Below the pieces are notes generated by a model, which worked only from the letters and a program-made list of their open reading frames with translations, searched no databases and had not been told where the DNA came from. From Acidobacteriota bacterium (GTDB taxonomy: Bacteria; Acidobacteriota; Vicinamibacteria; Vicinamibacterales; UBA2999): a stretch of DNA of 64,000 nt. The translations under genes were made by a program, and so were the position numbers. Below, piece after piece: positions 2,277-58,744 of the stretch (positions are counted from its first letter, which is position 1; every line of letters starts with the position of its first letter). Location: positions 5,243-69,242 of the forward strand of contig JBFMCA010000002.1 in the NCBI GenBank assembly GCA_040754955.1, given 5' to 3'.

Positions 2277-2284
2277 GTCTGATG

Positions 2285-3400: not shown

Positions 3401-3471
3401 AAACACCAATCGTACATGCCCGGCCTCGTGAGGCGCAAGGCGGCTGAGCCGCTGGCCTATAGTTGAGGCCT
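3401..3471. promoter_or_regulatory. Putative divergent promoter region with two -10-like hexamers close to the start codons
   Basis: TATAGT (3458-3463, +) lies 8 nt before ATG 3472. TACGAT (3414-3409, -) lies 8 nt before GTG 3400. Confidence 0.45.
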
Positions 3472-14513: not shown

Positions 14514-14551
14514 GATCGGTAGCCGGTCGCCAGTAAATCGGAAGTCAGCAG

Positions 14552-15322: not shown

Positions 15323-15339
15323 GATCGCGCCCGCGCCTC

Positions 15340-16812: not shown

Positions 16813-16853
16813 GAGGTCTTTGAACGTGGAACTCTCCCACTTGTCACTGGCAC

Positions 16854-16873
16854 CGCGGGGCTGAAGCCCCGCG
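16854..16873. repeat. REP-like palindrome (CGCGGGGCT-GA-AGCCCCGCG)
   Basis: Perfect 9-bp inverted repeat with a 2-nt centre, 11 nt downstream of the SDR stop in the intergenic gap. No U-tract. Confidence 0.6.
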
Positions 16874-16884
16874 ATCCGGCGCGT

Positions 16885-18777: not shown

Positions 18778-19701
18778 CTATGCCAGGGCGACTGGCTTGA
18801 TCTGTAGAACCAGCTGGTCCCACCCGTACCGGCTGTGCGCCACGTCGCGCGCGGCCCTCCCGATGGACACCAGCCTATCGATGTCCGGCAGCTGGTCGAG
18901 GCGATTGATGTCGAGGACGGTCTTCAGGTGCTCGTAGCCTGCGGGTGAGTATTCATCGAGGTTCGTCAGCACCGCACAGCCGCACTCCATCGCGGCGTTC
19001 ACCGTCGTGTTGTTTGCACGCAGGCCTTTCTCGAAGAAGGCCGCGAGGAAGGTCGCATCGAGCAAATGGTTGTAGACCGCCGTGTCGGACAGATACCCCA
19101 TGAAGTAGACCCGTCCGTCGAAGATCTCCGACAGCTCCTCGAACCGCACGATGAAAGACTCGTCGAAGCTCGTGCCCTCGTGAAGCGCGGTCGAGACGAA
19201 CACCTTGAAGGTCTTCCCGGTGCCTTCGAGCAGGTCCTTCAGCTTCCGGTAGTACGGCACCCGGATCTTGTGCGCCATGCCGAAGGTGAACACCTGCAGC
19301 TCGGTCTGCTGCACGCGGTGGGGCGTGAGGATCGTGCCGGGACAGAACAGCTCGACGATGTCGGGCCGGGCGTCGCGCAACGACTCGAACAGCTCGCGGT
19401 TCCCACAGAAGACGTTGGCGGCGTTCCTGATGAGACGGAGCTCCACCTCGGTCCCGTCGACGGCGTGCAGGAACAGCTCGTACTGCCCGGCACGCTCCCG
19501 GGCCCATTCGTCGAGGAAGTGGACGTGCTGGGGCTCGAACTCGGAGAGCTTCAGCGACAGCAGGGGCCGGCGGGGAGACTCTGCCGGAAGGTTCGTGATG
19601 CCGACCACCGGGAGCCCGAGATGCTTGGCGAGGATCTGGTTGAACTTGGCGATGCCGCAGGTCCACGGGTTGAGGTGATACCCGGCGATACAGTCGATCA
19701 T
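18778..19701 (-). CDS. Hypothetical protein, probable compact GT-B glycosyltransferase
   Basis: CGIAKFN near the N-terminus, FTFG, FMGYLSD and NTTVNAAMECGCAVLTN (GT4-like C-terminal motif). Confidence 0.55.
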   Translation of the reverse strand: MIDCIAGYHLNPWTCGIAKFNQILAKHLGLPVVGITNLPAESPRRPLLSLKLSEFEPQHVHFLDEWARERAGQYELFLHAVDGTEVELRLIRNAANVFCGNRELFESLRDARPDIVELFCPGTILTPHRVQQTELQVFTFGMAHKIRVPYYRKLKDLLEGTGKTFKVFVSTALHEGTSFDESFIVRFEELSEIFDGRVYFMGYLSDTAVYNHLLDATFLAAFFEKGLRANNTTVNAAMECGCAVLTNLDEYSPAGYEHLKTVLDINRLDQLPDIDRLVSIGRAARDVAHSRYGWDQLVLQIKPVALA

Positions 19702-21911
19702 TCTTTGGCCACCCTATTGTAGCCGAGAACGTCAGTGCGGCCGCCGGCGGCGCTGCGGTCTGGCCGCCATCCATGCCCCGCCAAATGGGCACTGGCGCGC
19801 GCCAGGGCGTCCGGCAGTCCTTCGAGCACCAGGTGCGAGAGAGTCGATTCCGAGACCCCCTCAACCGCGGCAAGCACTTCCGCCTCGTCCGGTCCGAGAA
19901 TCGCACGTACCACCGCCGGCGGCGGCAGCTTCCACCGCCTGATCGCCCAGCCCAGGGGCACGCTCATAACGGGCTGCAGAACCTCTGCGCCGGGCGCAGG
20001 GTCGTGGCCGCGCCACAGAGGCGTGCGCAACGGGAGCCGGTCGGCGTCAGGCGCGAAGGCCGCGTACCGGTCCATCAGCAGGCGGCTCTTGCCGCCGGCC
20101 CTGACCGGAAGCGGAACAACGAGCCCGTCGCACTGGTTCGCGAGAACGTTCTGCCAGAGCAGCCCAAGGGACGCCAGGTTCGTTTCGAACGCCATCACCG
20201 AGCAGCCCGTCCGCCGTGCCACTGCCAGCGCGAAGTGCCCATCGCGGGCTGTGAGATCGTAGACGACCGCGCCTGGCGTCACGCGCGGGACCAGCCACTC
20301 CAGCGCCGCGCGCGCGGATGGCGCGAGGCCGGACGACGTGGTCTCCACAGCCCACAGTTCGACACCGGCCTCACGCATCGGCCGAAGCCGGGCCGACGCG
20401 TGCACCTTACGCGCGCCCGGCGCTTCTGTCGACGGCAGGGGGCGGTGCGCGGGCACCAGCTCGGGCGACCGCTGCTCCTCGCGCCGATCGGCTCGCGAGC
20501 CGGCGAACCGTTCCACCGCATCCGCCAGCACCGCCGCCGCGGGAACGTCCCATCCCGCCGGGCGAACGAACGCAGCCACCCTCGACTGCCACGCCGCGGG
20601 TGCCGTCGGACGCTCAATCTCCGCGGCAAGATCCGCGACGTGCGCATCGAGGTCGCTGGCCACCCGCACGAAGCCACCATGGGGCTCGGTCAGATAGTGG
20701 AAGTGCAGCGTCGACGCCTGACCGTCGGCGTAGGCGTCATCGGTCAGAATGGTGAAGACCGGACGTCCGACGATTCCCGCCTCGATCTCAGCGCTCGTAT
20801 TCAACCCGACGACCGCAGTCGAGTGGAAGATGCTCTCGTACAGCACCTGGCTCGCCTCGTAGTCCGACGTCAGCGTCAGCGCTGCCGGATCCCCGAAGAT
20901 CGGCCGCGCGCGAAGCTCGACGCCGGACAGGCCGTCCCACGTGAACGCGCGTTCCTCGCCCGTCCAGCTGCCCTCGGCCAGGGGCAGATCGGGATGCGGC
21001 CGGATCAGCAGGCACGCGCGGCTGACCCTGGGGTGCGGCGACCGGCGGACCGCGGCAATCCACTGGCGGAGAAACCTGATCTCCTTCTCGGATACCAGCC
21101 GTGACGAGCAGAGGTAGAGCACGATCGGCACGTCGGCGCCAACGCCGAGCGACTTACGCACGGCGCCGGGTGCGACCGTGCTGCGTCGCTCGAAGAATCG
21201 GTCGAACCGAGGGGCACCCGTGACCGTCACGCGCTCCGCCGGGATGCCGTGCAGCAGGGCCGCCTCGGCCCGTTGCTGCTCGTTCCATACGAACAAGTGG
21301 TCGGGCGCACAGTGCATTGCGCCCTTCGTGCTCAGGTTGTCCCAACTGAACAGCATCATACCCACCGGGATTCCGAGCTCCCGCGCGGCCTTGACGATCT
21401 CCACCTGCAGGCCACCGAAATGGATGAGTGGGGTGACCAGTAGCACCTCTGGGGCCATGCGGCGCAGCGCCTCCAGCGCGAGCTGATCCGGCGGGGTCGC
21501 CTCTTCGAGCGCGGCCAACGCGCGGTTGATGCGGACCAGGGCCTCCTCGCCCAGGGCCAGCCACTGCTCGGCACTCCACGATCGAGCGACCTCCTTGGGA
21601 GCACCGACGGCCTTCATGAGCCGCTCGAAGACCCGCCCCCGCAGCTTACGCGCGCCGCGGTAGGGTTCCCCAAAGTACTGCAGGAGATCACGCAGGGGCC
21701 GGGCGAGATCGGCCGTGTCCGCCCAGCGGTCGCGCCGGCCGTCGGGCAACGGCACGACACGAACGCGCGGGTGCTCCACCAGCCCGCCGACTTTCGCGTC
21801 GCGCTCGTGGATCGCGACGATCACGTCGTGGCCCCGCGACGCGAGCGTGCGCACCACACCCACGAACGGCTCGACGGCCTTGCGATGCCTGAACGAGATG
21901 GCGATTCTCAC
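19698..21911 (-). CDS. Uncharacterised GT-B-like transferase (family 'SWD/RPHP') fused to a degenerate FkbM-type methyltransferase domain
   Basis: Motifs FSWDNLSTKG, LFVWNEQQ, IRPHP, VVGLNTSAEIEA and STLHFHYL. The C-terminal domain has VVYDLTARDGHF..AFETN. GTGA overlap at 21908-21911. Confidence 0.75.
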   Translation of the reverse strand: MRIAISFRHRKAVEPFVGVVRTLASRGHDVIVAIHERDAKVGGLVEHPRVRVVPLPDGRRDRWADTADLARPLRDLLQYFGEPYRGARKLRGRVFERLMKAVGAPKEVARSWSAEQWLALGEEALVRINRALAALEEATPPDQLALEALRRMAPEVLLVTPLIHFGGLQVEIVKAARELGIPVGMMLFSWDNLSTKGAMHCAPDHLFVWNEQQRAEAALLHGIPAERVTVTGAPRFDRFFERRSTVAPGAVRKSLGVGADVPIVLYLCSSRLVSEKEIRFLRQWIAAVRRSPHPRVSRACLLIRPHPDLPLAEGSWTGEERAFTWDGLSGVELRARPIFGDPAALTLTSDYEASQVLYESIFHSTAVVGLNTSAEIEAGIVGRPVFTILTDDAYADGQASTLHFHYLTEPHGGFVRVASDLDAHVADLAAEIERPTAPAAWQSRVAAFVRPAGWDVPAAAVLADAVERFAGSRADRREEQRSPELVPAHRPLPSTEAPGARKVHASARLRPMREAGVELWAVETTSSGLAPSARAALEWLVPRVTPGAVVYDLTARDGHFALAVARRTGCSVMAFETNLASLGLLWQNVLANQCDGLVVPLPVRAGGKSRLLMDRYAAFAPDADRLPLRTPLWRGHDPAPGAEVLQPVMSVPLGWAIRRWKLPPPAVVRAILGPDEAEVLAAVEGVSESTLSHLVLEGLPDALARASAHLAGHGWRPDRSAAGGRTDVLGYNRVAKE

Positions 21912-22579
21912 AGGGCGACCGGCAGCTTTTCCATCACGATGACGCGACCCTTGTTCAGCCAGTCCATACGCGCCTCCAGGTCGGGCCGCGTCCGGCAGCC
22001 CTCCAGCACGAACAGCAGCCGCAGGAAGTCCTTGTTCAGCAGCGTGACGTGCGTCGGATCCACGTCGAACTGCGTGGTGAAGTCGACAAGGCTCGCCGGC
22101 TCGGGATGGAAACGCGTCGTCACGTAGAGGTACTTCGACGTCATGCGCACCATGTTCTCGACGGTCTTCTTCACCTGGAACACGGTCAGGTGCTCCATCA
22201 CCTCGCGGCAGATCACGAGGTCGTAGGCGTTGTCGGGCTTGATGGGCTCGAAGGTGTTGCCCGTAACGATGCGATCGCGCACTTCGGGAGTGGCGAGCTG
22301 CCTGCTGCTCTCCGCGAAGTCGATGCCCTCGACGTCGACGCCGAGCTCGTGGAGCAGGTGCATCAGCGCGCCAGGCCCGCACCCGAGATCGAGCACCCTG
22401 TTTGGAGAAAAGACCTCCTTGATCAGCTGCGGATTGCGCCCCTCTATCGCGCGCCTGGTCTCGAGGTTGTAGCTGTTGCCCTCGGCACGCCACTCGCCGG
22501 TGAAGTACTCGGTGTCGTAGTGCTCGGAGGAAGTGGGCTTCTGCGCGAAGATGGCGTTCTCGAATTCGGCAATGGTCAT
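21908..22579 (-). CDS. Class I SAM-dependent methyltransferase
   Basis: Motifs VLDLGCGPG, GIDF and YDLVICREVMEHL. ATGA overlap at 22576-22579. Confidence 0.88.
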   Translation of the reverse strand: MTIAEFENAIFAQKPTSSEHYDTEYFTGEWRAEGNSYNLETRRAIEGRNPQLIKEVFSPNRVLDLGCGPGALMHLLHELGVDVEGIDFAESSRQLATPEVRDRIVTGNTFEPIKPDNAYDLVICREVMEHLTVFQVKKTVENMVRMTSKYLYVTTRFHPEPASLVDFTTQFDVDPTHVTLLNKDFLRLLFVLEGCRTRPDLEARMDWLNKGRVIVMEKLPVAL

Positions 22580-23043
22580 AAGGGTCTCTGGTGGATGCGT
22601 GTCCATTCCTCCGCGAAGCGTTCGAGGAGACGGGACGAGGAATCGAGCATGGTGTCGAGATAGACTATTTCGATACCCATCCGCCGGCAAATCTCGACCT
22701 GCCGGGGCGGCAGCCCCCGGGCCTTCCAGTCGGCGCCTTTCACGTAGTGCGACGGACGGAGTTGCTCGAGGATGGTCTCAGTGTCGTGCTGATTGACGTG
22801 GGCGTACGAGATGTACCGCACGGCGTCGACCACCACGGCACGCGCTTGCTCTGGAAGCAGGGGCGGCCGGCCCTTGGTTCGGACGTAGCGGTCGGAGGCG
22901 ACGTTGCACAGCAGCGGACGAGCCACACGCGCCGCCGCCTCCCGGAAGTACTCGATGTGTCCGGCATGCAGCGGGTCGAAGGCGCCGTCCACCATCGCCA
23001 CGCGGCCGGCATACGCCGGCAGATCAGGATACGACACGATCAT
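22576..23043 (-). CDS. Stand-alone HxGH cytidylyltransferase (TagD/RfaE-domain-II-like)
   Basis: Motifs DGAFDPLHAGH, SD..VRTKGR, YVKGADW and DSSS. Confidence 0.88.
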   Translation of the reverse strand: MIVSYPDLPAYAGRVAMVDGAFDPLHAGHIEYFREAAARVARPLLCNVASDRYVRTKGRPPLLPEQARAVVVDAVRYISYAHVNQHDTETILEQLRPSHYVKGADWKARGLPPRQVEICRRMGIEIVYLDTMLDSSSRLLERFAEEWTRIHQRPL

Positions 23044-24112
23044 CGTCGTTGGCCCTCGATCCCATCGAGATTGAGGTGGCTGCGGACGGCGGCGTCTGCA
23101 AACAGGCGGTCGAGCAGCGCGGAGACGAACCGGCGGGCGCTCGGGAGATTCATGTGCGAGCCGAGCTGTCCCTGGAGTCCTTCCGGCCAGACCTCGATAT
23201 AGGGTGTGCCCGTCCGCCGCGCCAGCTCGCGTGCCACGTGCAATGGGGCGTGGTCCGCATAGGGAACGAACGTGAACACCAGCATGCCACCGCGGCTCTC
23301 AACCTCGCGACGGAACGTCTGGAGATGTGCGATCTGGACCTCAAGGAATCGCGCCATGAATTCTCGTTGCTCTGGTGTCGGCTCGTCAGCGGGCGGCGTC
23401 GTCAGCGGCCGCCGTTGATCTTCCGAAAACACTCACCACGGGGTGCCGGTCTCGCGCGATCGATAGATCACCTGATTCCGCTGGTTCAGCCAGTACTCGC
23501 GCCAGGGCGGCACGACGAGATGGAGATGCTTACGAACCTCCCAACTCGCGACACGCTCGAAGTAGGTCCGCCAGCTCTCCCAGGCCGTCCGATTGCGGGC
23601 CGCGACGGCAGCCGCCGGGCTGATCGTTCATGAAGAACCCGTCGGCATTGGCCACGACCAGCTTCGGCCGAAGATCTCATTTCCGGATCACCGCCACTGG
23701 AAAGGCATCGGCGCTGCCCGGAAACGCCATGTTGTAGCCCCGCCCGTACGAGGCCAGCGTGGGCTCGAACGCCTCGGCCCTGAATGCGTAGAGCCCTCGG
23801 GAGTTGCCGACGAACACCCCGTCCGCCTTGCGCAGCGCCGCCGGCACACCCCACCAGCCATAAAACGCGACGTCGAACTCCAGGACCTCGGGATCCGAAC
23901 TGAGGTACCAGTCCCGCGACACGTCGGGCAGTTCGTGGCGGTACGGCACGGTGTGCCTCGACAGCGGCATCTGCAGGTCGGCCCAGTACCCTGCGGCCAC
24001 GGTCCCGGTGAACACGAGCGCGAAGACGAAGGGGCTGATGACCACCGTGGGGCGGCGCCACGGCCGGCGCCTAAGATTAAGATTAATTAAGACTGGAAGT
24101 AGATGGAATCAT
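23040..24112 (-). pseudogene. Disrupted SGNH/AlgJ-DltD-like partner of the MBOAT acyltransferase
   Basis: TM helix, then VFVGNSR ... GSHMN. The frame is broken by in-frame TGA 23677-23679 (IRK*DLRPKLVVANADGFF), a frameshift near 23625 and in-frame TGA 23433-23435. A candidate original start overlapping the MBOAT end (ATG 24112, MIPSTSSLN*) is cut by a TAATCT repeat. Confidence 0.7.
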
Positions 24113-25538
24113 TCGAGCGCCCGTAGAAGCTCAGCGTCGCGTACAACATCAAGGCCGCCCAGGCCGCACGCTTGAACGCGTGCAGCGGGCGACCTGCGAA
24201 CTGGCGCAGGGCGGCCCTTCCGTGCATCGCCGCGACCACACCGATGAGCAGCAGGGTGAACTGGGGCCAGTCGTGGCTGAAGTCGAGCGCGCCGGTGGGC
24301 CCGCCGAACAAGTTCGCGACGAACTGGTTGGCCTCGGCCAACGAGTCGCTCCGGAAATACACCCACGCCAGCGCGACGACCAGCTGCACCACCAGATAGT
24401 ACGGGATGGACCACGCCCACATCAGGGGTCCCGACGCCTGGCCGAGGCGCTGGGGGATGCCAAGAAGCCGCTCCACGGCGAGCGCGGCACCGTGGATGGC
24501 ACCCCAGACAGCGAAGGTCCAGGCGGCGCCATGCCACAACCCGCCCAGGAGCATGACGACGACGAGGTTCGCGTAGGTGCGCGCGGCTCCCGCCCGGTTG
24601 CCACCCAGAGGGATGTACAGGTAGTCGCGCAGCCAGGTCGAGAGCGAAATATGCCACCGCCGCCAGAACTCGCTGAACGACCTCGCGATGTACGGGTAGT
24701 TGAAGTTCAGCGGGAGACGGAATCCCAGCAGGTAGGCCGTCCCGCGGGCGATGTCGGAATAGCCCGCGAAGTCGCAGTAGATCTGGACCGAGAACAGTGC
24801 GAGCGCAAACCACGCCAGGTGCGCGTCCGCGCCTGGCTGTGAGGCGACGTCCCACACGGGCTGCAGCCCCGGCGGGCCGCCAAGGTACGCGCCGATGTTG
24901 TCGGCACACACCATCTTCAGGAAGAAGCCCCGCAGCACCAGTCCCAGCGCCTCCAGCGTGACGCGCAGGTGAATCTGACGCGGACGCCGGAACTGGTACA
25001 GGAACTCGCTCGCGCGTACGATGGGTCCCACTACCAGCTGCGGAAAGAACGCGACGAACAAGAGGAACCGCCAGAAGCTCCTCTCGCGCCTCAGCTCGCC
25101 GCGGTACACGTCGATGGTGTAGCTCATCGACTGGAACGTGTAGAAGGAGATGCCGATGGGCAGGACCACGTGGAACGCCGGGTGCCAGCCCACGTCGACC
25201 GACGCCACGGAGAGAAGTCCCAGGGCCGACTCGATCAGGAACGTCGCGTACTTGAAGAACGCAAGCATTCCAAGGTTGGCCGTCAGCGATATGATGAGCA
25301 CCGCGCGCCGGATCCGCTCGCGTGGGTCGCGCGCGAGCACCAGCCCCGCGACGTAGTCGATCACGCAGTTGAACAGCAGCAGGAGCAGGTAGGACGGGCG
25401 GTGCCACCCGTAGAATATCAAGCTGAGGACCAGGAGCACCAGCAGGTACGGTACGGCGTTCGACTGCATCCCGATGGTTGCCCGAGCCGCCAGCGCCGCG
25501 AACATCATCGCCGCGAACGCGAATGACACGAAGTTCAT
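24087..25538 (-). CDS. MBOAT family O-acyltransferase (AlgI/PatA/DltB-like)
   Basis: Motifs FFKY, LPIGISFYTFQSMSY, FFPQLVVGPIVR, QIYCDFAGYSDIA, NFNYPY, FWRRWHISLSTWLRDYLYIPLGG and GLWHGA. Confidence 0.93.
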   Translation of the reverse strand: MNFVSFAFAAMMFAALAARATIGMQSNAVPYLLVLLVLSLIFYGWHRPSYLLLLLFNCVIDYVAGLVLARDPRERIRRAVLIISLTANLGMLAFFKYATFLIESALGLLSVASVDVGWHPAFHVVLPIGISFYTFQSMSYTIDVYRGELRRERSFWRFLLFVAFFPQLVVGPIVRASEFLYQFRRPRQIHLRVTLEALGLVLRGFFLKMVCADNIGAYLGGPPGLQPVWDVASQPGADAHLAWFALALFSVQIYCDFAGYSDIARGTAYLLGFRLPLNFNYPYIARSFSEFWRRWHISLSTWLRDYLYIPLGGNRAGAARTYANLVVVMLLGGLWHGAAWTFAVWGAIHGAALAVERLLGIPQRLGQASGPLMWAWSIPYYLVVQLVVALAWVYFRSDSLAEANQFVANLFGGPTGALDFSHDWPQFTLLLIGVVAAMHGRAALRQFAGRPLHAFKRAAWAALMLYATLSFYGRSNDSIYFQS

Positions 25539-26551
25539 TGAACTCGCACCCGCCGTTGTCCGCCCCGCAGCGAACGCCGCGCTGGCCGCGCGTGCTCGCG
25601 GCGACCCTGTGGGCCGCGGCGGCGGCCGCAACGCTCCTCCCGCCCAGTCCCGCCGACGAAGGGCTCGTCGTCCCGGAGGTCAACATCCGCTGGACCCCTG
25701 GACTCTCGGTGGCGGAGCGCACGCGGGTCGAGCAGGAACTGCGACTCGTCGGCGCGACGCACCGCGAGGGCACGACATGGGGCTACGGCACGCTCGACGC
25801 GTCGCAGCACGGCCTCGCACGGATTGTCCGCCACCCGGCCGTCGCCGACACGCATTGGATCGACCGCACCGCCTACACCCTCGCGCCCGGCGCGCGGTCG
25901 ACGCGGGTGTTCCTGGCACAGGCAACATCCCCACTTCGCGACCGCCTCACCACCGCGGCGAGGCCGCTCGCGCCGTGGCTCCTCGGCGTCGCGTACGTCA
26001 CGACCCTGGCGGCATTCCGCGCTCGCTCCCGGATCGCTGTGGCCGTAATCGCGGCGGTGCCAGCGCTGTGGCTGACATTCGCCGCCGTCGAAGGCCCGCA
26101 GGCAGCCGTGTGGAACGCCTTTCGGTTCCATCATCTCCTCGACCGTGCGGCCGCGACGCTGACGATCGACCGCGCCTTCGGACCGCCGCCACGGGTAGCG
26201 GGATTCTGGGTCGATGCGACGGCGGGCTGCGCGCATGCCCTGTCTGGACGGATGTCGCTGGATCTGGACGACGTGGGGGGCCAGCTCACGCTGGACGGGG
26301 AACCGGCGCCGATCACGACCTACCGCGCCGAGTACGGCCGCGTCGGTTTCAGACAGTGGGGACGATCCGTCGTCAGGATACGGGCGGATCTCGAGGATGG
26401 CCGCGTCGCGTTCGTGGCGCTGCAGGGAGTGGGCCTGTCGGTTGCCGAAGTGCTGTTCGTGGAGGTGAGGAACCGCGACGGCAGCCTGACGCGGCTGGCG
26501 GCTCCCGAGGCCCTCGAGCAGTGCGGCGAGGTCAGTAGTACCGATCACTGA
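25538..26551 (+). CDS. Hypothetical membrane-associated protein, antisense to the glycan operon (start uncertain)
   Basis: Signal/TM-like N-terminus, an ~65-aa domain (VNIRWTPG..REGTTWGY..HPAVADTHWIDR), two TM-like helices and a beta-rich C-terminus. It fills the gap between two minus-strand genes. Confidence 0.55.
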   Translation: MNSHPPLSAPQRTPRWPRVLAATLWAAAAAATLLPPSPADEGLVVPEVNIRWTPGLSVAERTRVEQELRLVGATHREGTTWGYGTLDASQHGLARIVRHPAVADTHWIDRTAYTLAPGARSTRVFLAQATSPLRDRLTTAARPLAPWLLGVAYVTTLAAFRARSRIAVAVIAAVPALWLTFAAVEGPQAAVWNAFRFHHLLDRAAATLTIDRAFGPPPRVAGFWVDATAGCAHALSGRMSLDLDDVGGQLTLDGEPAPITTYRAEYGRVGFRQWGRSVVRIRADLEDGRVAFVALQGVGLSVAEVLFVEVRNRDGSLTRLAAPEALEQCGEVSSTDH

Positions 26552-47284: not shown

Positions 47285-47293
47285 CTGCCTCGA

Positions 47294-50553: not shown

Positions 50554-50560
50554 GTTCTGA

Positions 50561-51580: not shown

Positions 51581-54500
51581 CCGCGGGGCGAGGTCCGCTC
51601 GGAGCCTGCCGCGCGGCACGCGCGCCGCCAGGCCTTCGACACCTGTTTGACGCCGAGCTTCCGGCGGACTTCCTTCAACACGCCCGCCAGGCGCTTGCGC
51701 CGGTGGTGCAATGCCAGCCGCCACTGCTTCCGGAGCTGCTTCATCGATCCGCCAGTCAACCGACGTGTTGCCGCCCCTGCCGTCCAAGCAGCGCCCACTG
51801 GAATCGCCAGCGCCGCACGGAGGGCGAGCGCCACGATGCCCGTCGTGTGGGGCATGGGCTCCCTCTCCGCCCCCATCACGATTGCGTCGGCCAGCAGGGG
51901 AACGGCCGGCTGCAGCCGCCCGTGAGGCCGGATGAACGCCGATACGAACCGATCGAGCACCGCGGCCGCGGCCTCGGGGTGCCGGATCGATTCGGACAGC
52001 TTGGCCACGTGCTCCTCCATCGACCGCGCTAACTGGAGGAAGCCGCCATGCTCGGGCAGCAGGTACCGGAAGTGAATCGTGCCTTGCTGCGTCTGGTCGA
52101 AATCGCCGAGCATCAGCGAATGGACGGGACGCCCGATGATCGTGGCCTCGATCATAGCGCTGGTGTTAATGCCGACGACGGCGGCCGAGTAGTAGATCGA
52201 GTCGAAGAAGGCGTCGCGGTTCTGCTCGTCGGTGGGATCGTGCCGGCCGCGCGGCCAGATCGCGACATTCGACAGGTCCGAGACGTCGGCCGCCGCCCAC
52301 TGGTCCGCGTTGTACGGATGCGGGCGAACCAGTACACCCGCATCACGAACCGCCGAATCGTCTGAACTCCGCAACGCTTCGATCCAGCGCCGTACGAACG
52401 GCGCCTCGGAGGTTTCGCCCGCGATGAAGAATGAGGATCCGGTGAACAGCACGAACGGCTTCGACGGGTCGAGGCCCACCATCGCGCAGAACTCCTCACG
52501 CGAGCGCGACGGCCGCCGCTCGAACCACCGGTCGAAGGCCTGCGCTCCGGTCACGACGATGCGGTCGGCCGAAACGCCGTGCAGATCGGACGCCTCGGCC
52601 TTCTGGAAGCCATTCCAGACGGTGACCAGATCCGGCTCGACCCGCAACAACCCCTTGTTGGTCAGGTTGTCCCAGCTCGCGATACAGGCGATCACCGGCA
52701 GCCTGACGGCCCGCGCAGCCCGTACGACGTCCACCTGCTCGGACGCCACATCCACGAGCGGAGACACCACGACCGCGTCGGCCTGAGCCTCGGCCAGGTA
52801 TCTCATGATGCGCCGGTCGACCGGGATCGCGCGCTCGATGGTGGTGAGCGCCCGCAGCAGCTCGCGCACCAGCGCCGGGGGGAGGTGATGGAACCTGTCC
52901 AGCCAGTGCAGCACCCGCGGCAGGGCCTTGCGCCTGACGCGGGCTCGCAGGGCGGGCACGTCGCCCATCCGCGGGTCCAGATACCGCACGAAGTCCATGG
53001 TGCCGCGAACGGCATGCGCGAGGCCCGCCCAGGCGTCCCGCCGTTCCGGGAAAACGCCCACGAAGCGGCCCCTCACGTCATCGGGGCGGAAGCGAGCCTG
53101 CTTTCGCTCACGAATCGCGTTCACCGTGACCGCGACGTCGTGCCCGCGGGCTCCGAGCTCGGCCAGGGTGTCGTCATAGAAGCGAAGGTACTCCGGTGAG
53201 CCCAGGACGACGAGCAGCCTCCGCCGCGCGGGCGGGCCGTCGTCCTTGTCGCGGGTGACGGTCCGGGCAGGCATCGAACGCGCGGCGGCGGCCAGGGGCG
53301 CGAGCGCCGCAGCAACCGGGCGCAGCAACACGCTGAGCGCCCTGGTGCGCGCCGGACTCGTACGACGCGACCCGACCCGCTCGATGACGTCCGCCAGCGC
53401 AGGCGCGACAGCGCGATCGAGCCCGAGTGGCCGGATGAAACTCTGGATGAAGGCGCGGTCGGTTCGCCGCGCCGCAATCGGCGTGTCCACGAGCTGTTGC
53501 AGTTGGGCCACGTGCGATGGAAGGTCGGCCGCAATGGTGAGCAGTCCGCCAGACACGTGCTGCAGGTGGCGGAAATGCAGCGTGCCCTCCTGTGTGCCGG
53601 CGAACTCGGCGGTCCGCGGCGAGTAGACGGGCCGCCCCACGATGCCCGACTCGATCAGTGCGCTCGTGTTCACGCCGACGACCGCGCTGCTGAAGTACAT
53701 CGAGTGGTAGTAATCAGCGCGCGAGTGCTCGTCCACCGGGTTCGCGCCGAGACGCGGGAATATCGCCACCGGACCCAGTTCATCCCACTGCACGTCGCGC
53801 CACTGGTCGGCGTTCTGCGGGTGCGGCCGGACCAGCACCGCGATCTCGCGCAGGCGTGGGTCCGCGCTCTCACGAATCGCCTGGAGCCATCGTTTCACGA
53901 ACCGCACCTCGCGCGGCGCGATGAACGGCGACGAGCACACGTAGAGGATGATCTCGCGGTCGGCCGGCAGGCCGATGCGGGCCGCGAACGCGTCGCGGGA
54001 GAGACTCGGTCGCGCCTCGAACCAGTGGTCGTACGCGGGTGAGCCTGTGACCGTCACGATGTCTTTGGGGATACCGTGCAACTCCGCAGCTTCGTCCCGC
54101 TGCGCTTCGTTCCACACGGTCACGGCATCAGGCACCTCGTGAACCAGTCCCTTGGTCGTCAGGTGGTCCCACGATCCGACACAGAGCACCGTCGGAATGC
54201 CCAATCGCTTCGCCGCCCGGACGTAGTCCACCTGCGGCGAACCAAAATACAACAGGGGGGTGACAACGAGAACGTCTGGACGGGTGCGTTCGAGGATGGC
54301 CGTCGCGTGCGCCGCGCCCGGGACGGCTCGCTCGAGCGCGTCCACCGCCCCATAGACGAGCCGCCGCCCCCACGGCCGGCGCATGAACGCCGAGTGCCCG
54401 ACCGTCACAGCCAGTGGCGGCACCTGAGTGGCGGCCCTCGCCCGCAGCGCCGGCGAGGCATCGTAGACCGGCTCGAGGTAGCGCCAGTAGTCCAACGTGA

Positions 54501-54735
54501 GCCGCAGGCTCGTGGCGAGCCGCGCGTAGGCGTGTCCCTTCGTGCTCGGGGCCAGCTCCGAGGTGAATGCTCCGGGCACCGCGCGCTGCAGTCCGTCGAG
54601 TGTGGTCGCGCCGCCGAGCGCCTCACGCCGGTCGGTCACCAGGTGAATCCTGTGACCGCGCCCCGCCAGCTCACGCAGTGCGTGCTCGAAGTTCCTGAGG
54701 AACCCGAGATGGGTGACTGCAAAAACGATGTTCAC
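51577..54735 (-). CDS. Tandem double 'SWD/RPHP' GT-B-like transferase
   Basis: Domain 1: GSWDHLTTKG, VRPHP, QEGTLHF. Domain 2: ASWDNLTNKG, VRPHP, QQGTIHF. Basic C-terminal tail. GTG start at 54735. Confidence 0.8.
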   Translation of the reverse strand: MNIVFAVTHLGFLRNFEHALRELAGRGHRIHLVTDRREALGGATTLDGLQRAVPGAFTSELAPSTKGHAYARLATSLRLTLDYWRYLEPVYDASPALRARAATQVPPLAVTVGHSAFMRRPWGRRLVYGAVDALERAVPGAAHATAILERTRPDVLVVTPLLYFGSPQVDYVRAAKRLGIPTVLCVGSWDHLTTKGLVHEVPDAVTVWNEAQRDEAAELHGIPKDIVTVTGSPAYDHWFEARPSLSRDAFAARIGLPADREIILYVCSSPFIAPREVRFVKRWLQAIRESADPRLREIAVLVRPHPQNADQWRDVQWDELGPVAIFPRLGANPVDEHSRADYYHSMYFSSAVVGVNTSALIESGIVGRPVYSPRTAEFAGTQEGTLHFRHLQHVSGGLLTIAADLPSHVAQLQQLVDTPIAARRTDRAFIQSFIRPLGLDRAVAPALADVIERVGSRRTSPARTRALSVLLRPVAAALAPLAAAARSMPARTVTRDKDDGPPARRRLLVVLGSPEYLRFYDDTLAELGARGHDVAVTVNAIRERKQARFRPDDVRGRFVGVFPERRDAWAGLAHAVRGTMDFVRYLDPRMGDVPALRARVRRKALPRVLHWLDRFHHLPPALVRELLRALTTIERAIPVDRRIMRYLAEAQADAVVVSPLVDVASEQVDVVRAARAVRLPVIACIASWDNLTNKGLLRVEPDLVTVWNGFQKAEASDLHGVSADRIVVTGAQAFDRWFERRPSRSREEFCAMVGLDPSKPFVLFTGSSFFIAGETSEAPFVRRWIEALRSSDDSAVRDAGVLVRPHPYNADQWAAADVSDLSNVAIWPRGRHDPTDEQNRDAFFDSIYYSAAVVGINTSAMIEATIIGRPVHSLMLGDFDQTQQGTIHFRYLLPEHGGFLQLARSMEEHVAKLSESIRHPEAAAAVLDRFVSAFIRPHGRLQPAVPLLADAIVMGAEREPMPHTTGIVALALRAALAIPVGAAWTAGAATRRLTGGSMKQLRKQWRLALHHRRKRLAGVLKEVRRKLGVKQVSKAWRRACRAAGSERTSPRG

Positions 54736-54746
54736 TCGTTCGCGGA

Positions 54747-55622
54747 CTAGAGGTTGTCGATGGCCTTGGCTTCTTCGCGCGTGAAGTACCACGCGCCGGC
54801 GACGAGCATGACGCCCGTGACGCCAAGCGCGGTCACGAGGCTGCCAATGTCGAGGGTTCCGATTCCCAGAACGCCCCACTTGAAGGTCTCGACGTACGCC
54901 GCCATGGGATTCAGCATCATCCATCCGCGGTATTCGGACGGCACCTTCGACAGCGGGTAGATGACGGGCGTGAGGTAGTTCCAGAACCGCAGCACGTAAC
55001 GCACGGTGAAGCGCACCTCGCGGACCCGCGTTTGCCAGACGCTGGTCCAGAGCCCGACCGCAACGGCCAGCGTCACGCAGCAGGCGGCGGCGAAGACCGC
55101 CGCCAACAACTGTGGGCCGATCACCAGGTACAGTCGACCGTCCGTCACGAAGTAGTAGACGAAGGCGATGGCCAGGAGCACCACGAAGATGCAGAAGTAC
55201 AACACGGCCGGTGAGGCCGACGAGAGCGGCATCACGAGCCGGGGGAAGTACACCTTCTTCACCAGACCCTTGTTCAGGTCGAGAGAGCGGGTGACCCAGA
55301 TGGTGGCCTGCTCGAAGAGCATCCAGGCCGCGGAGCCGGTGAGAAAGAAGAGGAAGTACGGGACGCCGTCAGAGCCCACGCCCAGAATACCGCCGAACAC
55401 CGCGGCCGAGATGGCGATGGGAAGGATGGGACGCAGCAGCCAGATCTTGCCCAGCAGCGTGCCCTGGTACATCTCCACCACGGTCTTGACGGCGAAAAAC
55501 CGCAGAACGCGATGATATCGGAACAGCTCGCGCAGGCGGACGCCAAGTCCCTCCCGGCGCGGCTCGATGGTCCATTCGACCGTCGCGCCCTCACCGACCG
55601 ACGAAAACAGCCGCTTAAGCAT
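54747..55622 (-). CDS. wzm: ABC-2 transporter permease for glycan export
   Basis: Motifs YQGTLLGKIW, LVKKVYFPRL, YLTPVIYP and LNPMA, with about six TM helices. Confidence 0.92.
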   Translation of the reverse strand: MLKRLFSSVGEGATVEWTIEPRREGLGVRLRELFRYHRVLRFFAVKTVVEMYQGTLLGKIWLLRPILPIAISAAVFGGILGVGSDGVPYFLFFLTGSAAWMLFEQATIWVTRSLDLNKGLVKKVYFPRLVMPLSSASPAVLYFCIFVVLLAIAFVYYFVTDGRLYLVIGPQLLAAVFAAACCVTLAVAVGLWTSVWQTRVREVRFTVRYVLRFWNYLTPVIYPLSKVPSEYRGWMMLNPMAAYVETFKWGVLGIGTLDIGSLVTALGVTGVMLVAGAWYFTREEAKAIDNL

Positions 55623-56901
55623 TGACCAGCGTCTCTTTCTTCAGCGACCACTCCAGCCGCGGCGCCAGTAGGCCGCCCTTCTGGAGCTGCTGCTTCTCGA
55701 TGCCCCGCTCGTTGTCGTACCCCATGAAGCTCACGGCGCCATAGATGATGAGCGACGATTCCTTGCCCTCGGCGTGCATGATGAGGAACGCGTTCACGCC
55801 ATAGAGGATCTCCGTGAGGAACGAGGGCGGAATCCGCCCGAGCGCCTCATAGAGGCCCGGCTCGGCGATCTCGATCCACTCCGGCGTCATCGTCCGGAAG
55901 ATGAGGCCGCCACGATGCGTCAAGTCGAAGCCGATTCGGGCCTTGAGCGGGCGCTGCACCGAGAAGCGAATCCGGACGCCGACCTCCTCGCCAATCGGCG
56001 CCGCGCCAATCTCGCGGCCGCGCTGGGAAACCAGCTTCGCCGCGATCAGCTCGGCGTTCCTGTTCGAATGGCGTCCCTTTTCGGTTCGCGCGGCCTCATT
56101 CTTGGCCCAGGCCACGTTCTGATACTCGGTGACCACCTTATCGGGATCGCCGGCCCCCTGGATCCGCCCGCCGTTGAGCCAGATCACCTCATTGCAGACC
56201 TTGAGGATGGCCTCCATATCGTGCGACACGAACAGCACGGTGAGCCCATCGTTCGCCAACTCGGACACGCGGGCGAGGCACCGCTCCTGGAACGCGATGT
56301 CGCCGACGGCCAGAATCTCGTCCGCGATCAGAATCTGTGGCCGCATGTTCACGGCTACCGAGAAGGCCAGCCGGAGGTACATGCCACTCGAGTAGAACTT
56401 CAGCGGTGTATCGACGAACTGTTCGATCTCCGCGAAGGCGATGATGTCGTCGAAGTGCTTCTCGATGTCAGTGCGCGGCACGCCGTACATGGCCGCGTTC
56501 ATGATGATGTTCTCGCGCGCGGAGACCTCGGGGTTGAACCCGGCGCCCAGCTCGAGCAGCGACACGACGCGGCCGACGCCGCGCACGCGACCTTCGGTCG
56601 GCGGCGTGACGCGTGCGATTACCTTGAGCAGCGTGGACTTGCCCGCGCCGTTCGGCCCGATGACGCCCAGCACCGTGCCGCGCTTCACCGTGAAACTGAC
56701 GTTACGGAGAGCCCAGAACTCGCGCTTTCCGCCGAACGGCTGGGTCACGCCGTGGCGCAGCCGCTCCGGCCAAAACTTCACCCGGGCCCACACGCCTTTC
56801 GGTTTCTTGGCTGATTCGGTTTCCTGAATGTAGAAACACTTGCCGAGCCCGTCGACCACGAGGCTCACGTCTGGAGGTAGTTGCTGAAACTTGCTGGACA
56901 A
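55615..56901 (-). CDS. wzt: ABC transporter ATP-binding protein with C-terminal carbohydrate-binding (Wzt_C-like) domain
   Basis: Walker A GPNGAGKST, YSSGM signature, ILIADE and FVSHD, followed by an ~150-aa beta-rich C-terminal extension. The TTG start at 56901 is approximate. Confidence 0.92.
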   Translation of the reverse strand: MSSKFQQLPPDVSLVVDGLGKCFYIQETESAKKPKGVWARVKFWPERLRHGVTQPFGGKREFWALRNVSFTVKRGTVLGVIGPNGAGKSTLLKVIARVTPPTEGRVRGVGRVVSLLELGAGFNPEVSARENIIMNAAMYGVPRTDIEKHFDDIIAFAEIEQFVDTPLKFYSSGMYLRLAFSVAVNMRPQILIADEILAVGDIAFQERCLARVSELANDGLTVLFVSHDMEAILKVCNEVIWLNGGRIQGAGDPDKVVTEYQNVAWAKNEAARTEKGRHSNRNAELIAAKLVSQRGREIGAAPIGEEVGVRIRFSVQRPLKARIGFDLTHRGGLIFRTMTPEWIEIAEPGLYEALGRIPPSFLTEILYGVNAFLIMHAEGKESSLIIYGAVSFMGYDNERGIEKQQLQKGGLLAPRLEWSLKKETLVNA

Positions 56902-56935
56902 CGTTGCTCTTCCCGAATTGACGGCCCAATCGTGC

Positions 56936-58744
56936 TCAGGTGCTGCTCGAGCCGCGGACCGCACCGAGTACATGTCGGTGGGCGCGTTGTGCCATGCGGC
57001 GGGCCCGTTTGGCGAGCTCACGCAGGTCTTTGCGTCCGCGTTTGACGGCACGCCGGGCGCCACGCGTCGTGCGGTCCACACCAAGGCGCACGGCGCGGCG
57101 CGTCGTCTTGCTCGCCTCCTGCCAGCGGCCTCGCAGCCGCTTGCGCGTGGAGCGAAGGGATCGGCGCGCCTGGCTCGACCACTCGCGGCGCCTCTCACGC
57201 AGCATCAACCGAGCGGTCAGGAGGGCGACCGCGATGGTCAGCGGCACGCGGATGAAGACCACCCACCACGGCCTCGGCTCGAACGGCCACGCTACGGTGG
57301 CGATCACGGCCAGCGGCAGGAGCAACGCACGGCGTATCCTGGTGGAACGAAGCGGTTCGGACGCCGCGGCGCGCAGCGCGCCGAGGTCCGCGATGGCGCA
57401 CGAGAGCACGCGAGCCGCGTTTACGTCGAGGCCCAGGGGGCGCACGAAGGCTCGGACGAACTTCTCGCTCCGCTCGTCCCGCGCTTCTGGCGTCGCGACG
57501 GCGCGCGCCAGCTGCGCGACATGCTCGTCCAAGTTCTTCGCAAGGTGCAGCAGGCCCGTCTCGGGGTCGGCTATGTGCTGGAAGTGCAGCGTACCTGCCT
57601 GTGAGTGCTCGAAGTCCCGCGACAATACCGTGAACACCGGCTTCCCGAGGATGCCGGACTCGATCATCCCGCTGGTGTTGACGCCGACCACCGCGGAGGA
57701 ATGGTACATAGAATCGAAGTAGTCGGCCTGGTAGGCCGGGGCGAGCCGATCCGCCCCAGGCGCCGGCCACAAGGCCACGTTGGGGAACGCCGAGTAGTCG
57801 ACACCGAGATACTGGCGGCTGTTGTTCGGATGCGGCCTGATCAGGATGCCCGCCAACGACAGCAGCGGGTCCGCTGCCGCACGAACTGCCCGGATCCACC
57901 GCTCGACGAACACCGCCTCGTTCGGTGCAATGAAGCTGGACGACCCGAGGTACAGCACGTAGGGCCGGGCGGGGTCCAGGCCGACTCTCGCGCAGAACTC
58001 GGCGCGCGTGCGGTCGCTCCGCCACGAGAACCACTTGTCGAACAGTTGCGCGCCGGTGATCACGACACGGCTCTCGGGCACACCGTGCAGGCTGACCGCT
58101 TCCTTCCGCTGAGCCGCGTTCCAGACGAAGACGCGGTCCGGCACGACGCGCATCGCGCCTTTGTTGGTGAGATTGTCCCAGCTCGCCACGCAGAAGCCGG
58201 TCGGGATTCCCAGAGCCTGCGCCGATCGCACGTAGTCGACCTGCGCGGATCCCGGATCGACGAGCGGCGTCACGAGGAGCACGTCGGGCTGCGCCCGGAT
58301 GATGAAGTCTTCGATGGCATCGCTGCGTGGGATGCCCCGCTCGACGGCGGCTAGCGCTGCCGCCAAGACAGGCTGCAGGCCGATGCGGGCGGTGGTTCTG
58401 ACCAGCGCCCGCATCGCGCGCGGCACCTGCACTTCGATACGCGCCCGGAGCGCGGTGGCGTGTTTGAATTCCGGGAGGAAGTAGCGCGCGTAGTCCTGGG
58501 TGCGGCGATTGGCCCAGGCCAAATCGGTCCACAGGCCCGGCTCGCGGTCCGGGGCGCGCTGGATGCTGACGCTCTCCGGGAACTCCTCTCTGAGCCTCTG
58601 GCCGAACACCTGCTCGATGCCGTCCTTGTTGCGGTCGCTCTGGTAGGCAAAGGTGACGGTATGCCCGGCCTCGAGCAGCCCGCGCATGGCGGTCTGATAG
58701 TGGCTCACCCAGCCAGGGGTCGACATCACGAAGAGAATCTTCAT
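56936..58744 (-). CDS. 'SWD/RPHP' GT-B-like transferase with hydrophobic hairpin and ~80-aa basic tail
   Basis: Motifs ASWDNLTNKG, IRPHP and QAGTLHF. Then LLLPLAVIATVAW..VFIRVPLTIAVALL and RERRREWSSQARRSLRSTRKRLRGRW. Confidence 0.78.
   Translation of the reverse strand: MKILFVMSTPGWVSHYQTAMRGLLEAGHTVTFAYQSDRNKDGIEQVFGQRLREEFPESVSIQRAPDREPGLWTDLAWANRRTQDYARYFLPEFKHATALRARIEVQVPRAMRALVRTTARIGLQPVLAAALAAVERGIPRSDAIEDFIIRAQPDVLLVTPLVDPGSAQVDYVRSAQALGIPTGFCVASWDNLTNKGAMRVVPDRVFVWNAAQRKEAVSLHGVPESRVVITGAQLFDKWFSWRSDRTRAEFCARVGLDPARPYVLYLGSSSFIAPNEAVFVERWIRAVRAAADPLLSLAGILIRPHPNNSRQYLGVDYSAFPNVALWPAPGADRLAPAYQADYFDSMYHSSAVVGVNTSGMIESGILGKPVFTVLSRDFEHSQAGTLHFQHIADPETGLLHLAKNLDEHVAQLARAVATPEARDERSEKFVRAFVRPLGLDVNAARVLSCAIADLGALRAAASEPLRSTRIRRALLLPLAVIATVAWPFEPRPWWVVFIRVPLTIAVALLTARLMLRERRREWSSQARRSLRSTRKRLRGRWQEASKTTRRAVRLGVDRTTRGARRAVKRGRKDLRELAKRARRMAQRAHRHVLGAVRGSSST

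Follow-up and report, generated by a model that had tools for sequence, protein, structure and literature searches.

Transferases for bacterial nonulosonic acids are poorly known, as a paper on Tannerella states, and according to a 2026 paper in the Journal of Biological Chemistry (JBC) the definition of new families was still going on in 2024-2026 (GT118 and GT140). The Tannerella paper describes Tanf_01245 and TFUB4_00887 of Tannerella forsythia, which are required to add a terminal pseudaminic or legionaminic acid (Leg) derivative, as TagB-like glycosyltransferases of the GT-B type with HP motifs, on genetic evidence, and gives BFO_1060 as their homologue in strain 92A2. The JBC paper describes a (K/R)XHP motif conserved in sialyltransferases (GT29/38/42/52/80) and in retaining transferases of 3-deoxy-D-manno-octulosonate (Kdo; GT99/107), whose Lys/Arg usually bonds the cytosine while the Pro packs on its ring. 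For the phosphotransferase TarL, published work proposes H300 as catalytic base, stabilised by W299, has H433 act on the leaving group, reports both His mutants to be essentially inactive and describes basic amphipathic helices. SpsB of Bacillus subtilis, a TagB-domain protein with HP motifs encoded beside the legionaminic-acid genes of the sps operon, had been the expected Leg transferase but is reported to be dispensable for Leg transfer. Here, we analysed 64,000 nucleotides of an Acidobacteriota bacterium (Vicinamibacterales, UBA2999; assembly GCA_040754955.1, contig JBFMCA010000002.1, positions 5,243 to 69,242 of the forward strand), called the window below and numbered from its first letter. 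It carries nine copies of a domain, termed X, that represents a large, unnamed, lineage-expanded GT-B family, TagF-like and BFO_1060-like, with a cytidine-type motif and an apparent swap of the catalytic residue, and not a categorically new system.

Domain X is about 450 amino acids long and lies in eight minus-strand genes, all of which were found as open reading frames (ORFs). A BLASTP search with the first 470 residues of g40337 recovered nine copies (34-45% identity, E 2e-59 to 1e-133), two of them in g51577, and a profile search of the whole genome (4.78 Mb, 228 contigs) gave exactly nine matches, every one within the window; compared all against all, the copies are 34-51% identical. Both searches agree with an initial annotation made from the letters alone, which had counted nine copies of about 450 residues in eight genes. 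The four arrangements it had distinguished (X alone, in tandem, followed by a domain termed GPW, or followed by an FkbM methyltransferase domain) were borne out by BLASTP and by curated FkbM scores. Four genes (19698-21911, 48283-50553, 51577-54735, and 56936-58744) are likely shorter than their longest ORFs, because the start of the alignment and the stops of upstream genes moved their likely starts; translation of g19698 likely begins at a GTG at 21911, immediately next to where the methyltransferase gene upstream of it stops. The eight genes are as follows.

19698-21911, minus strand: g19698, X at 20493-21911 (34-35% identity to g40337) and a C-terminal FkbM-like methyltransferase domain
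35092-37707, minus strand: g35092, X at 36340-37707, a hydrophobic and Arg/Lys-rich linker, and GPW at 35095-36078
37704-40340, minus strand: g37704, X at 38943-40340, a hydrophobic and basic linker, and GPW at 37707-38780
40337-41947, minus strand: g40337, single X at 40538-41947 and an 81-residue basic tail (28% Arg plus Lys); the sequence used for the model
45533-47284, minus strand: g45533, single X at 45929-47284 and a 131-residue basic tail (first 110 residues 32% Arg plus Lys)
48283-50553, minus strand: g48283, X at 49141-50553 and an FkbM methyltransferase domain
51577-54735, minus strand: g51577, tandem X-X at 53371-54735 and 51871-53223 and a hydrophobic/basic tail
56936-58744, minus strand: g56936, single X at 57371-58744 and a tail that has two hydrophobic segments and is basic at its end

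A nine-row alignment of the copies (A1) has 48 invariant columns, among which are all the shared motifs that had been listed from the letters alone. These are S187-W188-D189-x-L191-x-x-K194, W207-N208-x-x-Q211-x-x-E214-A215, T229-G230-x4-D235-x-x-F238, P303-H304-P305 after R or K, V349-G350-x-x-T353-S354, and Q378...H383. Conservation among the copies peaks around the SWD/WN/TG cleft (52%) and in the C-domain (44%), with the N-terminal Rossmann start (31%) and a helical insert (29%) the least conserved, a pattern that would fit a common donor chemistry with differing acceptors. In six of the eight proteins, Arg and Lys make up 24-32% of the 110 residues that follow X; the hydrophobic stretches were judged by eye. 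An AlphaFold2 model of X from g40337, built with a wider alignment of 68 sequences (A2), scored 94.1 in predicted local distance difference test (pLDDT) and 0.92 in predicted template modelling score (pTM); it comprises two Rossmann-like halves of alternating strands and helices, with the helical insert of about 85 residues at about 66-150. The GT-B fold is established on this model and its structural matches, given below.

Having described the domain, we then searched for its relatives. No Pfam family matched the X region of the eight proteins above threshold. An NCBIfam profile for BFO_1060 family glycosyltransferases, NF046086, matched seven of the eight (E 2.4e-15 to 8.5e-4), with the tandem protein g51577 scoring best (56.6 bits in two stretches) and single domains at 18.5-34.2 bits against a cut-off of 200, and it matched 65 of the 68 A2 members (E <= 0.01, best 2.6e-10), the sole consistent signal from a curated family. 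In the window copies the matches span only 41-189 of the 365 profile positions; at the sequence level they show a homologous region and not membership. A "surface carbohydrate biosynthesis protein" family, TIGR04396, matched 11 of the 68. PF04464, the family of TagF-like proteins, had no match in the eight proteins at E <= 0.01 and matched four A2 members at E <= 0.05; in a scan of the genome, two X copies scored 16.7 and 16.2 bits with it (cut-off 22.1). Weak Glyco_transf_4 matches in 31 of the 68 are confined to the generic N-terminal Rossmann start (e.g., residues 18-79), no A2 member matched Glycos_transf_1 at E <= 0.05, and PF05159 (Capsule_synth) had no Pfam match to X in the window proteins or in A2. 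A search of all chain sequences in the Protein Data Bank (PDB) with the X profile returned two chance matches only (a ferritin, E 0.27, and a chalcone synthase, E 0.7), and therefore no solved relative of X is detectable by sequence. With no Pfam family, no solved relative and a GT-B model, the description of X as an uncharacterised GT-B domain stands.

Profile-profile comparison gave a tentative link to one group. For this, true PF04464 proteins of related genomes and their homologues served as the comparison set, and hhalign aligned A2 to them with a probability of 50.6 (E 1.6e-4, 241 columns), pairing VWN with FIN, TG-x4-D with VG-x-PK-x-D, LYVCSS with LYAPTW, RPHP with K(P/L)H, and NTSA-x-x-E with DHSS-x-GFE. 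The controls gave 14.0 (NeuC), 1.5 (TIGR04372), 0.7 (epimerase), and 0.1 (NeuB), and the KpsS-like protein of the window gave 7.1. Two other family assignments were rejected on these values, those to the KpsS family (7.1) and to the epimerases (14.0). An intermediate relative, L087, matches the X profile at E 9e-34 and PF04464 at 23.0 bits (cut-off 22.1, profile positions 126-366) and retains SWDNF-x-x-K, VWN, TGAPQFD, and R-L-H-P. Of 30 neighbour clusters named by the ESM Atlas, 26 belonged to the PF04464-bearing set, with PF04464 present in only 12% of the listed cluster's members. By these comparisons X appears to be a divergent TagB/TagF-like branch, nearer to the Tannerella-type family than to teichoic-acid enzymes proper and a formal member of neither.

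The candidate active site carries one feature of the TagF-like enzymes and departs from them in another. Directly after the C-domain strand 298-302 stands R/K302-P303-H304-P305, in which P303 and H304 are invariant and R302 and P305 at least 90% conserved among the 68 sequences; H304 aligns in hhalign with the K-x-H of TagF-like proteins (TarL H433), so the leaving-group His is kept. An HP motif of CMP-releasing GT-B enzymes (CMP, cytidine monophosphate) had been proposed for X, and the (K/R)XHP motif of sialyl- and Kdo-transferases is indeed present. After N-domain strand 5, all nine copies have the invariant S187-W188-D189 and no conserved His. From a reading of the motifs and not from the alignment, we infer that W188-D189 stands where the TagF family has its catalytic Trp-His. 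An Asp at that place would suit glycosyl transfer; Asp is the base in GT80 and GT52 sialyltransferases. In published work on KrkA, an Asp is described as the nucleophile. One X-like protein of a relative (L088, G022:C1:1044500-1049500, minus-strand ORF 1791-3530) keeps SWDNL and TS and has R-P-A-P in place of R-P-H-P; lacking the leaving-group His, it may, from its sequence, be an inactive or re-purposed copy.

The same residues bear on whether X could be a true TagF-type phosphotransferase that transfers alditol- or sugar-phosphates from cytidine diphosphate (CDP) donors into a teichoic-acid-like phosphodiester polymer. TagF-like proteins are the closest of the families tested by profile comparison, ESM features point to PF04464, L087 passes the PF04464 cut-off, TarL is found by structure (Z 20.7), a PF01467 cytidylyltransferase gene lies two genes upstream of g19698, and the basic, presumably membrane-binding segments resemble the amphipathic helices of TarL. 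However, the catalytic His is absent from nine of nine copies, with Ser-Trp-Asp at that place, the window copies score below the PF04464 cut-off, the BFO_1060 family matched 65 of 68 A2 members against four for PF04464, and the precursor genes of the window are mainly NeuA/NeuB/NeuC sets with just one small cytidylyltransferase, which together make this explanation rather improbable.

Structural comparison was less discriminating. Judging by entry titles, all 50 matches listed by VIA-align were GT-B-like (Z 16-24, the lowest 16.1), led by NeuC (24.1; root-mean-square deviation 4.0 over 336 residues) and UDP-GlcNAc 2-epimerases (22.8; UDP, uridine diphosphate; GlcNAc, N-acetylglucosamine), followed by HepE (21.7), GT4-type enzymes (about 21), PglA (21.0), PimA (21.0), MurG (20.7), TarL (20.7), WaaA (19.8; a Kdo transferase that we take to be GT30), TagF (18.6), and a CMP-bound capsule multienzyme (8a0c, 16.9). 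Foldseek returned at least 500 matches at E <= 0.001, with MshA and NeuC on top. In these comparisons, GT4, GT28, 2-epimerases, TagF/TarL, and WaaA all fall at Z 18-24, and the ranking does not separate donor classes. Structure searches, which had been suggested as a check, recovered the fold and TagF (Z 18.6), and none of the 50 matches listed was a GT38/52/80/99/107 chain, which is not evidence against a relation to these families.

The prominence of NeuC raises the question of whether X is a transferase at all, since a NeuC/WecB-type sugar-nucleotide epimerase or hydrolase, or a non-catalytic scaffold, would share that fold; weak Epimerase_2 matches (PF02350, UDP-GlcNAc 2-epimerase; g56936 at 16.5 bits against a cut-off of 30.6, and four of 68 A2 members at E <= 0.05) go with it. 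We consider this very improbable, as the window already holds two bona fide NeuC-type genes (248 and 231 bits), the hhalign probability to NeuC was 14%, nine paralogues with tandems and fusions to a second GT-B domain or a methyltransferase suit assembly enzymes better, and the clustering of the 48 invariant columns at the interdomain cleft speaks for a catalytic role. X is almost certainly a GT-B transferase acting in glycan assembly.

A more serious contender is that the X proteins are ordinary GT-B glycosyltransferases with nucleoside diphosphate (NDP) sugar donors (UDP, guanosine diphosphate or adenosine diphosphate) that add hexoses or amino sugars, the nonulosonates being transferred by KpsS-like, TIGR04372, or GPW proteins. 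In its favour are the UDP-dependent enzymes at the top of the structural ranking (NeuC, HepE, PglA, PimA, and MurG, and MshA and NeuC in Foldseek), the weak Glyco_transf_4 matches, a number of X copies far above that of nonulosonate pathways in a window that offers other transferase candidates, and the precedent of SpsB, in which motif and context misled. Against these stand the invariant (R/K)-P-H-P as a cytidine-binding motif, a Pse/Leg-transferase family as the sole consistent curated match (Pse, pseudaminic acid), the profile link to TagF-like proteins (50.6 versus 14.0 for the NeuC control), and the restriction of the Glyco_transf_4 matches to a generic Rossmann start with no Glycos_transf_1 match, so that we regard ordinary donors for X as unlikely.

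The domains fused to X add further predicted activities. The GPW domains of g35092 and g37704 are 46% identical (E 2e-92) and without a Pfam match; with two stand-alone genes of this type, which have neither Pfam nor NCBIfam matches, the window therefore holds four GPW modules. A GPW model (pLDDT 90.3) has a GT-B fold whose nearest structures are GT9 heptosyltransferases (3tov, Z 13.5; 1psw, Z 12.7; 2h1f, WaaC, Z 11.8), with most of the domain covered, and the X-GPW proteins would therefore be two-transferase modules. The FkbM domain of g48283 scores 75.2 bits with TIGR01444 (cut-off 37.7) and 35.5 with PF05050 (cut-off 22.7). The C-terminus of g19698 is linked to FkbM solely by 34% identity to that domain (E 1.8e-19), and it also has a weak Pfam match to a TRM5/TYW2 methyltransferase (17.9 bits).

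We next explored whether X lies near nonulosonate genes elsewhere, in 40 related genomes that with the window's own make 41, and in public genomes. NeuB was found in 35 of the 41, including 10 of 16 genomes without X, and this common occurrence makes genome-level co-occurrence of X and NeuB uninformative, so physical proximity was used instead. Among the 19 relatives with at least six X copies, NeuB lies within 6 kb of a listed copy in 18, the exception (G003) having NeuB and X on different contigs. A NeuA, NeuB, or NeuC homologue was present in the flanks of 55 of 73 public-genome loci, and in 33 of the 40 with full 10-kb flanks; these genomes are kin with shared synteny and therefore amount to little more than one observation. 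Outside the order, 13 Acidobacteriota have X matches at E <= 1e-20, six of them, from five families, with NeuB within 13 kb (G077, G119, G251, G082, G055, and G183), and of three same-family genomes with distant X-like copies only, NeuB lies within 12 kb in two (G012 and G022) but not in G005. Roughly estimated for a 5-Mb genome that carries NeuB once or twice, chance would give about 1%. Left out of these counts as maybe generic GT-B matches were G035 (E 1e-6), whose X-like protein scores best on the GT4-type Glycos_transf_1 (25.8 bits), G038 (E 3e-5), and G056 (E 7e-9). The physical association of X with NeuB is real, though not universal, and the association with neuAB genes across genomes that had been put forward as a check was thus found in multi-copy relatives and in 6 of 13 distant Acidobacteriota.

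The family is large and unnamed. The X profile matched 7990 protein clusters (50% identity) at E <= 0.001 and 2152 at E <= 1e-30; among 120 close homologues listed, all the named ones were called "hypothetical protein," and precomputed Pfam assignments held only one PF13439 entry. Matches occur in 25 of the 41 related genomes (21 of 24 from the same family and 3 of 16 from other families of the order), at 1-27 clustered copies per genome. Three genomes have 27, 23, and 20 matches (G006, G019, and G016) clustered on single contigs, which therefore carry clusters mainly of X that extend over at least 20 kb. Among 251 evenly sampled Acidobacteriota, with at most six candidates scored per genome, 21 had a match at E <= 1e-5. 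Each window paralogue is closer to its best counterpart in another genome (44-73% identity) than to its best paralogue at home (40-51%), and one foreign contig carries, in unchanged order, counterparts of three neighbouring genes; hence the duplications date far back and the copies have been retained. The nine copies are presumably long-standing paralogues that differ in function.

Among the best 150 representatives, X stood alone in 61, with an unexplained tail in 34, as X-GPW in 24, as X-X in 16, as X-X with a tail in 6, and behind an unexplained head in 5, with one each of X-X-X, X-GPW-X, X-FkbM, and X-GPW with a tail. In 46 representatives with unexplained heads or tails of more than 150 residues, Pfam identified Glycos_transf_2 in two, a polysaccharide deacetylase in one, and weak Glyco_transf_4 matches in three, and several tails are divergent GPW-like domains by local hidden Markov model matches. 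Copies 46-51% identical to X also occur in metagenome-assembled genomes labelled Bifidobacteriaceae, Acidimicrobiia, Gammaproteobacteria, and Dehalococcoidia (L029, L035, L049, L068, L076, and L078); given the otherwise acidobacterial spread, these contigs look mis-binned sooner than transferred.

The copies, motifs, modelled fold, weak homologies, and gene neighbourhoods described above are observed features, and the explanation we prefer, with modest conviction, is that X is an unnamed, expanded TagB/TagF-like branch of GT-B enzymes whose paralogues work at the membrane face, most likely release CMP, and, in at least some cases, use nonulosonate donors. As separate statements, CMP as the leaving group is fairly likely, and transfer of nonulosonates by at least some copies has slightly more in its favour than against it. 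Several points weigh against this explanation. All family matches of X are below the curated cut-offs (56.6 against 200 bits for NF046086 and 16.7 against 22.1 for PF04464), and the probability of the alignment to TagF-like proteins is just 50.6%. That alignment begins with W188, set against a Trp that lies six positions past the TagF-like His, and the D/E-D/E-G motif described for bacterial sialyltransferases is absent from the invariant and nearly invariant columns of A1 and A2. The nearest global folds are UDP-dependent (NeuC, 2-epimerases, and GT4-type enzymes), with the five sialyl- and Kdo-transferase families missing from the matches listed. Of the 40 loci with full flanks, seven have no Neu gene, and in the other 7 of the 13 distant genomes NeuB is 41-84 kb away (two) or on another contig (five). 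X copies outnumber NeuB genes by 9 to 3 in this genome and by 27 to 2, 23 to 3, and 20 to 2 in G006, G019, and G016. The evidence for the Tannerella enzymes, as published, is genetic, and the case of SpsB means that motif and context are not proof.

The proposal of the initial annotation that X forms a CMP-nonulosonate transferase family is thus supported in part, by the motif, the NF046086 signal, and the proximity of Neu genes; the donor class is less secure, and as X copies far exceed NeuB genes, nine nonulosonate transferases are unlikely as stated. In its fullest form, the proposal would have all X modules as CMP-ulosonate transferases with one linkage per paralogue, derived from TagF-like phosphotransferases by a catalytic His-to-Asp switch and forming a new glycosyltransferase family, with a polymer made largely of three nonulosonic acids; we consider this combination decidedly doubtful.

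The surroundings of the X genes are consistent with surface polysaccharide synthesis. The window (64-72% G+C) contains a single long minus-strand polysaccharide cluster from about 8.4 kb to its right end, and its proteins have their close homologues in metagenome-assembled genomes that bear the labels Vicinamibacterales or Acidobacteriota. Families were assigned by Pfam and NCBIfam scans and by tblastn within the window, giving in total three NeuA, two NeuB, and two NeuC genes and one ATP-binding cassette (ABC) transporter. The principal features besides the X genes are as follows.

6279-8231: GT2 gene
8374-10161, minus strand: polyprenyl-phosphate sugar-phosphate transferase (Glycos_transf_4 and CoA_binding_3)
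10171-11850, minus strand: KpsS/KpsC-type (Capsule_synth) gene with an R-V-H-P motif (PF05159, 20.5 bits against a cut-off of 20, borderline)
11860-18767, minus strand: third nonulosonate set, with HAD hydrolase, transketolase-like, NeuA-like, aldehyde dehydrogenase, short-chain dehydrogenase/reductase (SDR), and second NeuB genes
14552-15634, minus strand: ORF containing the NeuA-like gene of the third set (PF02348, 79 bits, and tblastn)
17694-18767, minus strand: second NeuB, third set
22576-23043, minus strand: small cytidylyltransferase (CTP_transf_like, PF01467, 44.2 bits), two genes upstream of g19698
26532-27959, minus strand: TIGR04372 glycosyltransferase (144.2 bits against a cut-off of 45)
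29006-30250, minus strand: stand-alone GPW-type gene (tblastn to the GPW domain of g37704, 41-42% identity for this and the next gene, E 4e-69)
30247-31278, minus strand: stand-alone GPW-type gene (E 8e-67)
31275-32078, minus strand: NeuA-like, first nonulosonate set
31976-32920, minus strand: methyltransferase, first set
32898-34052, minus strand: NeuC-like 2-epimerase, first set
34049-35095, minus strand: NeuB, first set, abutting g35092
41944-42636, minus strand: NeuA-like, second nonulosonate set
42636-43790, minus strand: NeuC-like 2-epimerase, second set
43783-44922, minus strand: polysaccharide deacetylase, second set
44721-45536, minus strand: formyltransferase, second set
54747-55622, minus strand: ABC-2 permease, Wzm-type (PF01061, 31.3 bits)
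55615-57198, minus strand: ORF containing an ABC ATPase, Wzt-type (PF00005, 77.4 bits)
58747-60144, minus strand: TIGR04372 glycosyltransferase (155.5 bits)
60081-61565, minus strand: TIGR04372 glycosyltransferase (127.4 bits)

In all, the cluster encodes two S-adenosylmethionine-dependent methyltransferases; an MBOAT acyltransferase, a pair of epimerase/dehydratases, and a DegT aminotransferase are present as well. The three NeuA genes claimed for the window were all located (31275-32078, 41944-42636, and within ORF 14552-15634), and the companion claim that it holds no recognisable sialyltransferase needs qualifying: besides X there are eight further transferase-like modules, namely four GPW, three TIGR04372, and one KpsS-like, the last, with its R-V-H-P motif, being a candidate rival ulosonate transferase. 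The TIGR04372 genes of the window have no Pfam match, and a homologue is present in 17 of 73 related loci. The polyprenyl-phosphate sugar-phosphate transferase, which is WecA-like, is likely the initiating enzyme, the permease and ATPase point to an ABC-transporter-dependent export route, and the small cytidylyltransferase is a possible source of a CDP-activated donor.

Several neighbouring genes hint at modifications of the product. The enzymes beside the second NeuB (11860-18767) form an unusual combination for nonulosonate synthesis and may produce an altered side chain or N-acyl group, and the deacetylase and formyltransferase genes (43783-45536), which come straight after the NeuC and NeuA genes of the second set, suggest that its nonulosonate is N-formylated or re-acylated. 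The MBOAT membrane O-acyltransferase (24087-25631, minus strand, 105 bits), which adjoins small ORFs without a family match (23486-24061 and 25535-26548), probably O-acylates the polymer. The ABC ATPase ORF extends about 230 residues beyond the ABC_tran domain, and this extension might be a Wzt-type domain recognising glycan ends, which would suit the FkbM fusions as chain cappers. Minus-strand ORFs 18778-19701, 50637-51395, and 63245-64000 show coding-type G+C at third codon positions and no Pfam match, the first two having no NCBIfam match either.

Putting X into this setting, we infer the donor class, the roles of the catalytic residues, membrane association, and the order of assembly as follows. 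The WecA-like enzyme would start a lipid-linked primer, which X, GPW, TIGR04372, and KpsS-like modules would extend in the cytoplasm, the X modules sitting at the cytoplasmic membrane face anchored by their hydrophobic and Arg/Lys-rich tails or linkers. Each X module would most likely take a cytidine-nucleotide-activated donor and release CMP, with (R/K)-P-H-P holding the cytosine and stabilising the leaving phosphate, and with Trp-Asp in place of the Trp-His of TagF/TarL fitting a change from phosphoryl to glycosyl transfer. For at least some copies, the likeliest donors would be the CMP-nonulosonates made by the cluster's three NeuA/NeuB sets, and other copies may draw on CMP-Kdo or on a CDP-linked donor supplied by the small cytidylyltransferase. 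Two-step modules would arise through fusion to a GT9-like transferase (GPW), to another X, or to an FkbM methyltransferase. Methyl caps end chains in other ABC-dependent systems. The fused FkbM domains would methylate the product, and chain capping is our guess for their role; the finished polymer would leave through the Wzm/Wzt-type ABC transporter.

Overall, the cluster probably builds a complex surface polymer with nine-carbon acidic sugars, with X helping. If CMP-ulosonate use is true, X would give glyco-engineering many natural enzymes that differ in linkage specificity, would show how a phosphotransferase scaffold turned into a glycosyltransferase, and would imply a complex acidic surface polymer in Vicinamibacterales. 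Vicinamibacterales are a common soil group, and if all X modules were CMP-ulosonate transferases the product would correspond, in soil bacteria, to polysialic acid and be conserved throughout the order; a literature search pairing Vicinamibacter with nonulosonic acids found no paper. If the donors are ordinary, X would still be a large unannotated GT-B family deserving a Pfam/CAZy entry.

Compared with known systems, X shares with TagF, TarL, and TagB the GT-B fold, the order of motifs over 241 columns, and basic, possibly membrane-binding segments, whereas those enzymes are CDP-alditol phosphotransferases and the context of X is rich in CMP-nonulosonate pathways. CMP-dependent ulosonate transferases (GT38/52/80, GT99/GT107/GT140, and KpsS1 of GT118) have in common with X the (R/K)-P-H-P motif, a carboxylate as the key catalytic residue, which for X is a prediction, and multi-module proteins in ABC-dependent capsule or O-antigen synthesis, but have no detectable sequence relation to it (no Pfam or PDB sequence match). 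The GPW model is nearest in fold to the GT9 heptosyltransferases (WaaC/WaaF and TibC), with 10-15% identity to solved structures, and the X-GPW two-transferase modules resemble those of other ABC-dependent polysaccharide systems. SpsB, likened here by its published description, also pairs a TagB-type domain and HP motifs with neighbouring nonulosonate genes. The Tannerella enzymes Tanf_01245 and TFUB4_00887, as described, likewise combine HP motifs and a TagB-like GT-B character with adjacent nonulosonate genes; unlike them, X is larger, has the helical insert of about 85 residues, and is multi-copy and fused, and it belongs to an ABC-transporter cluster, whereas they act in a protein O-glycosylation system.

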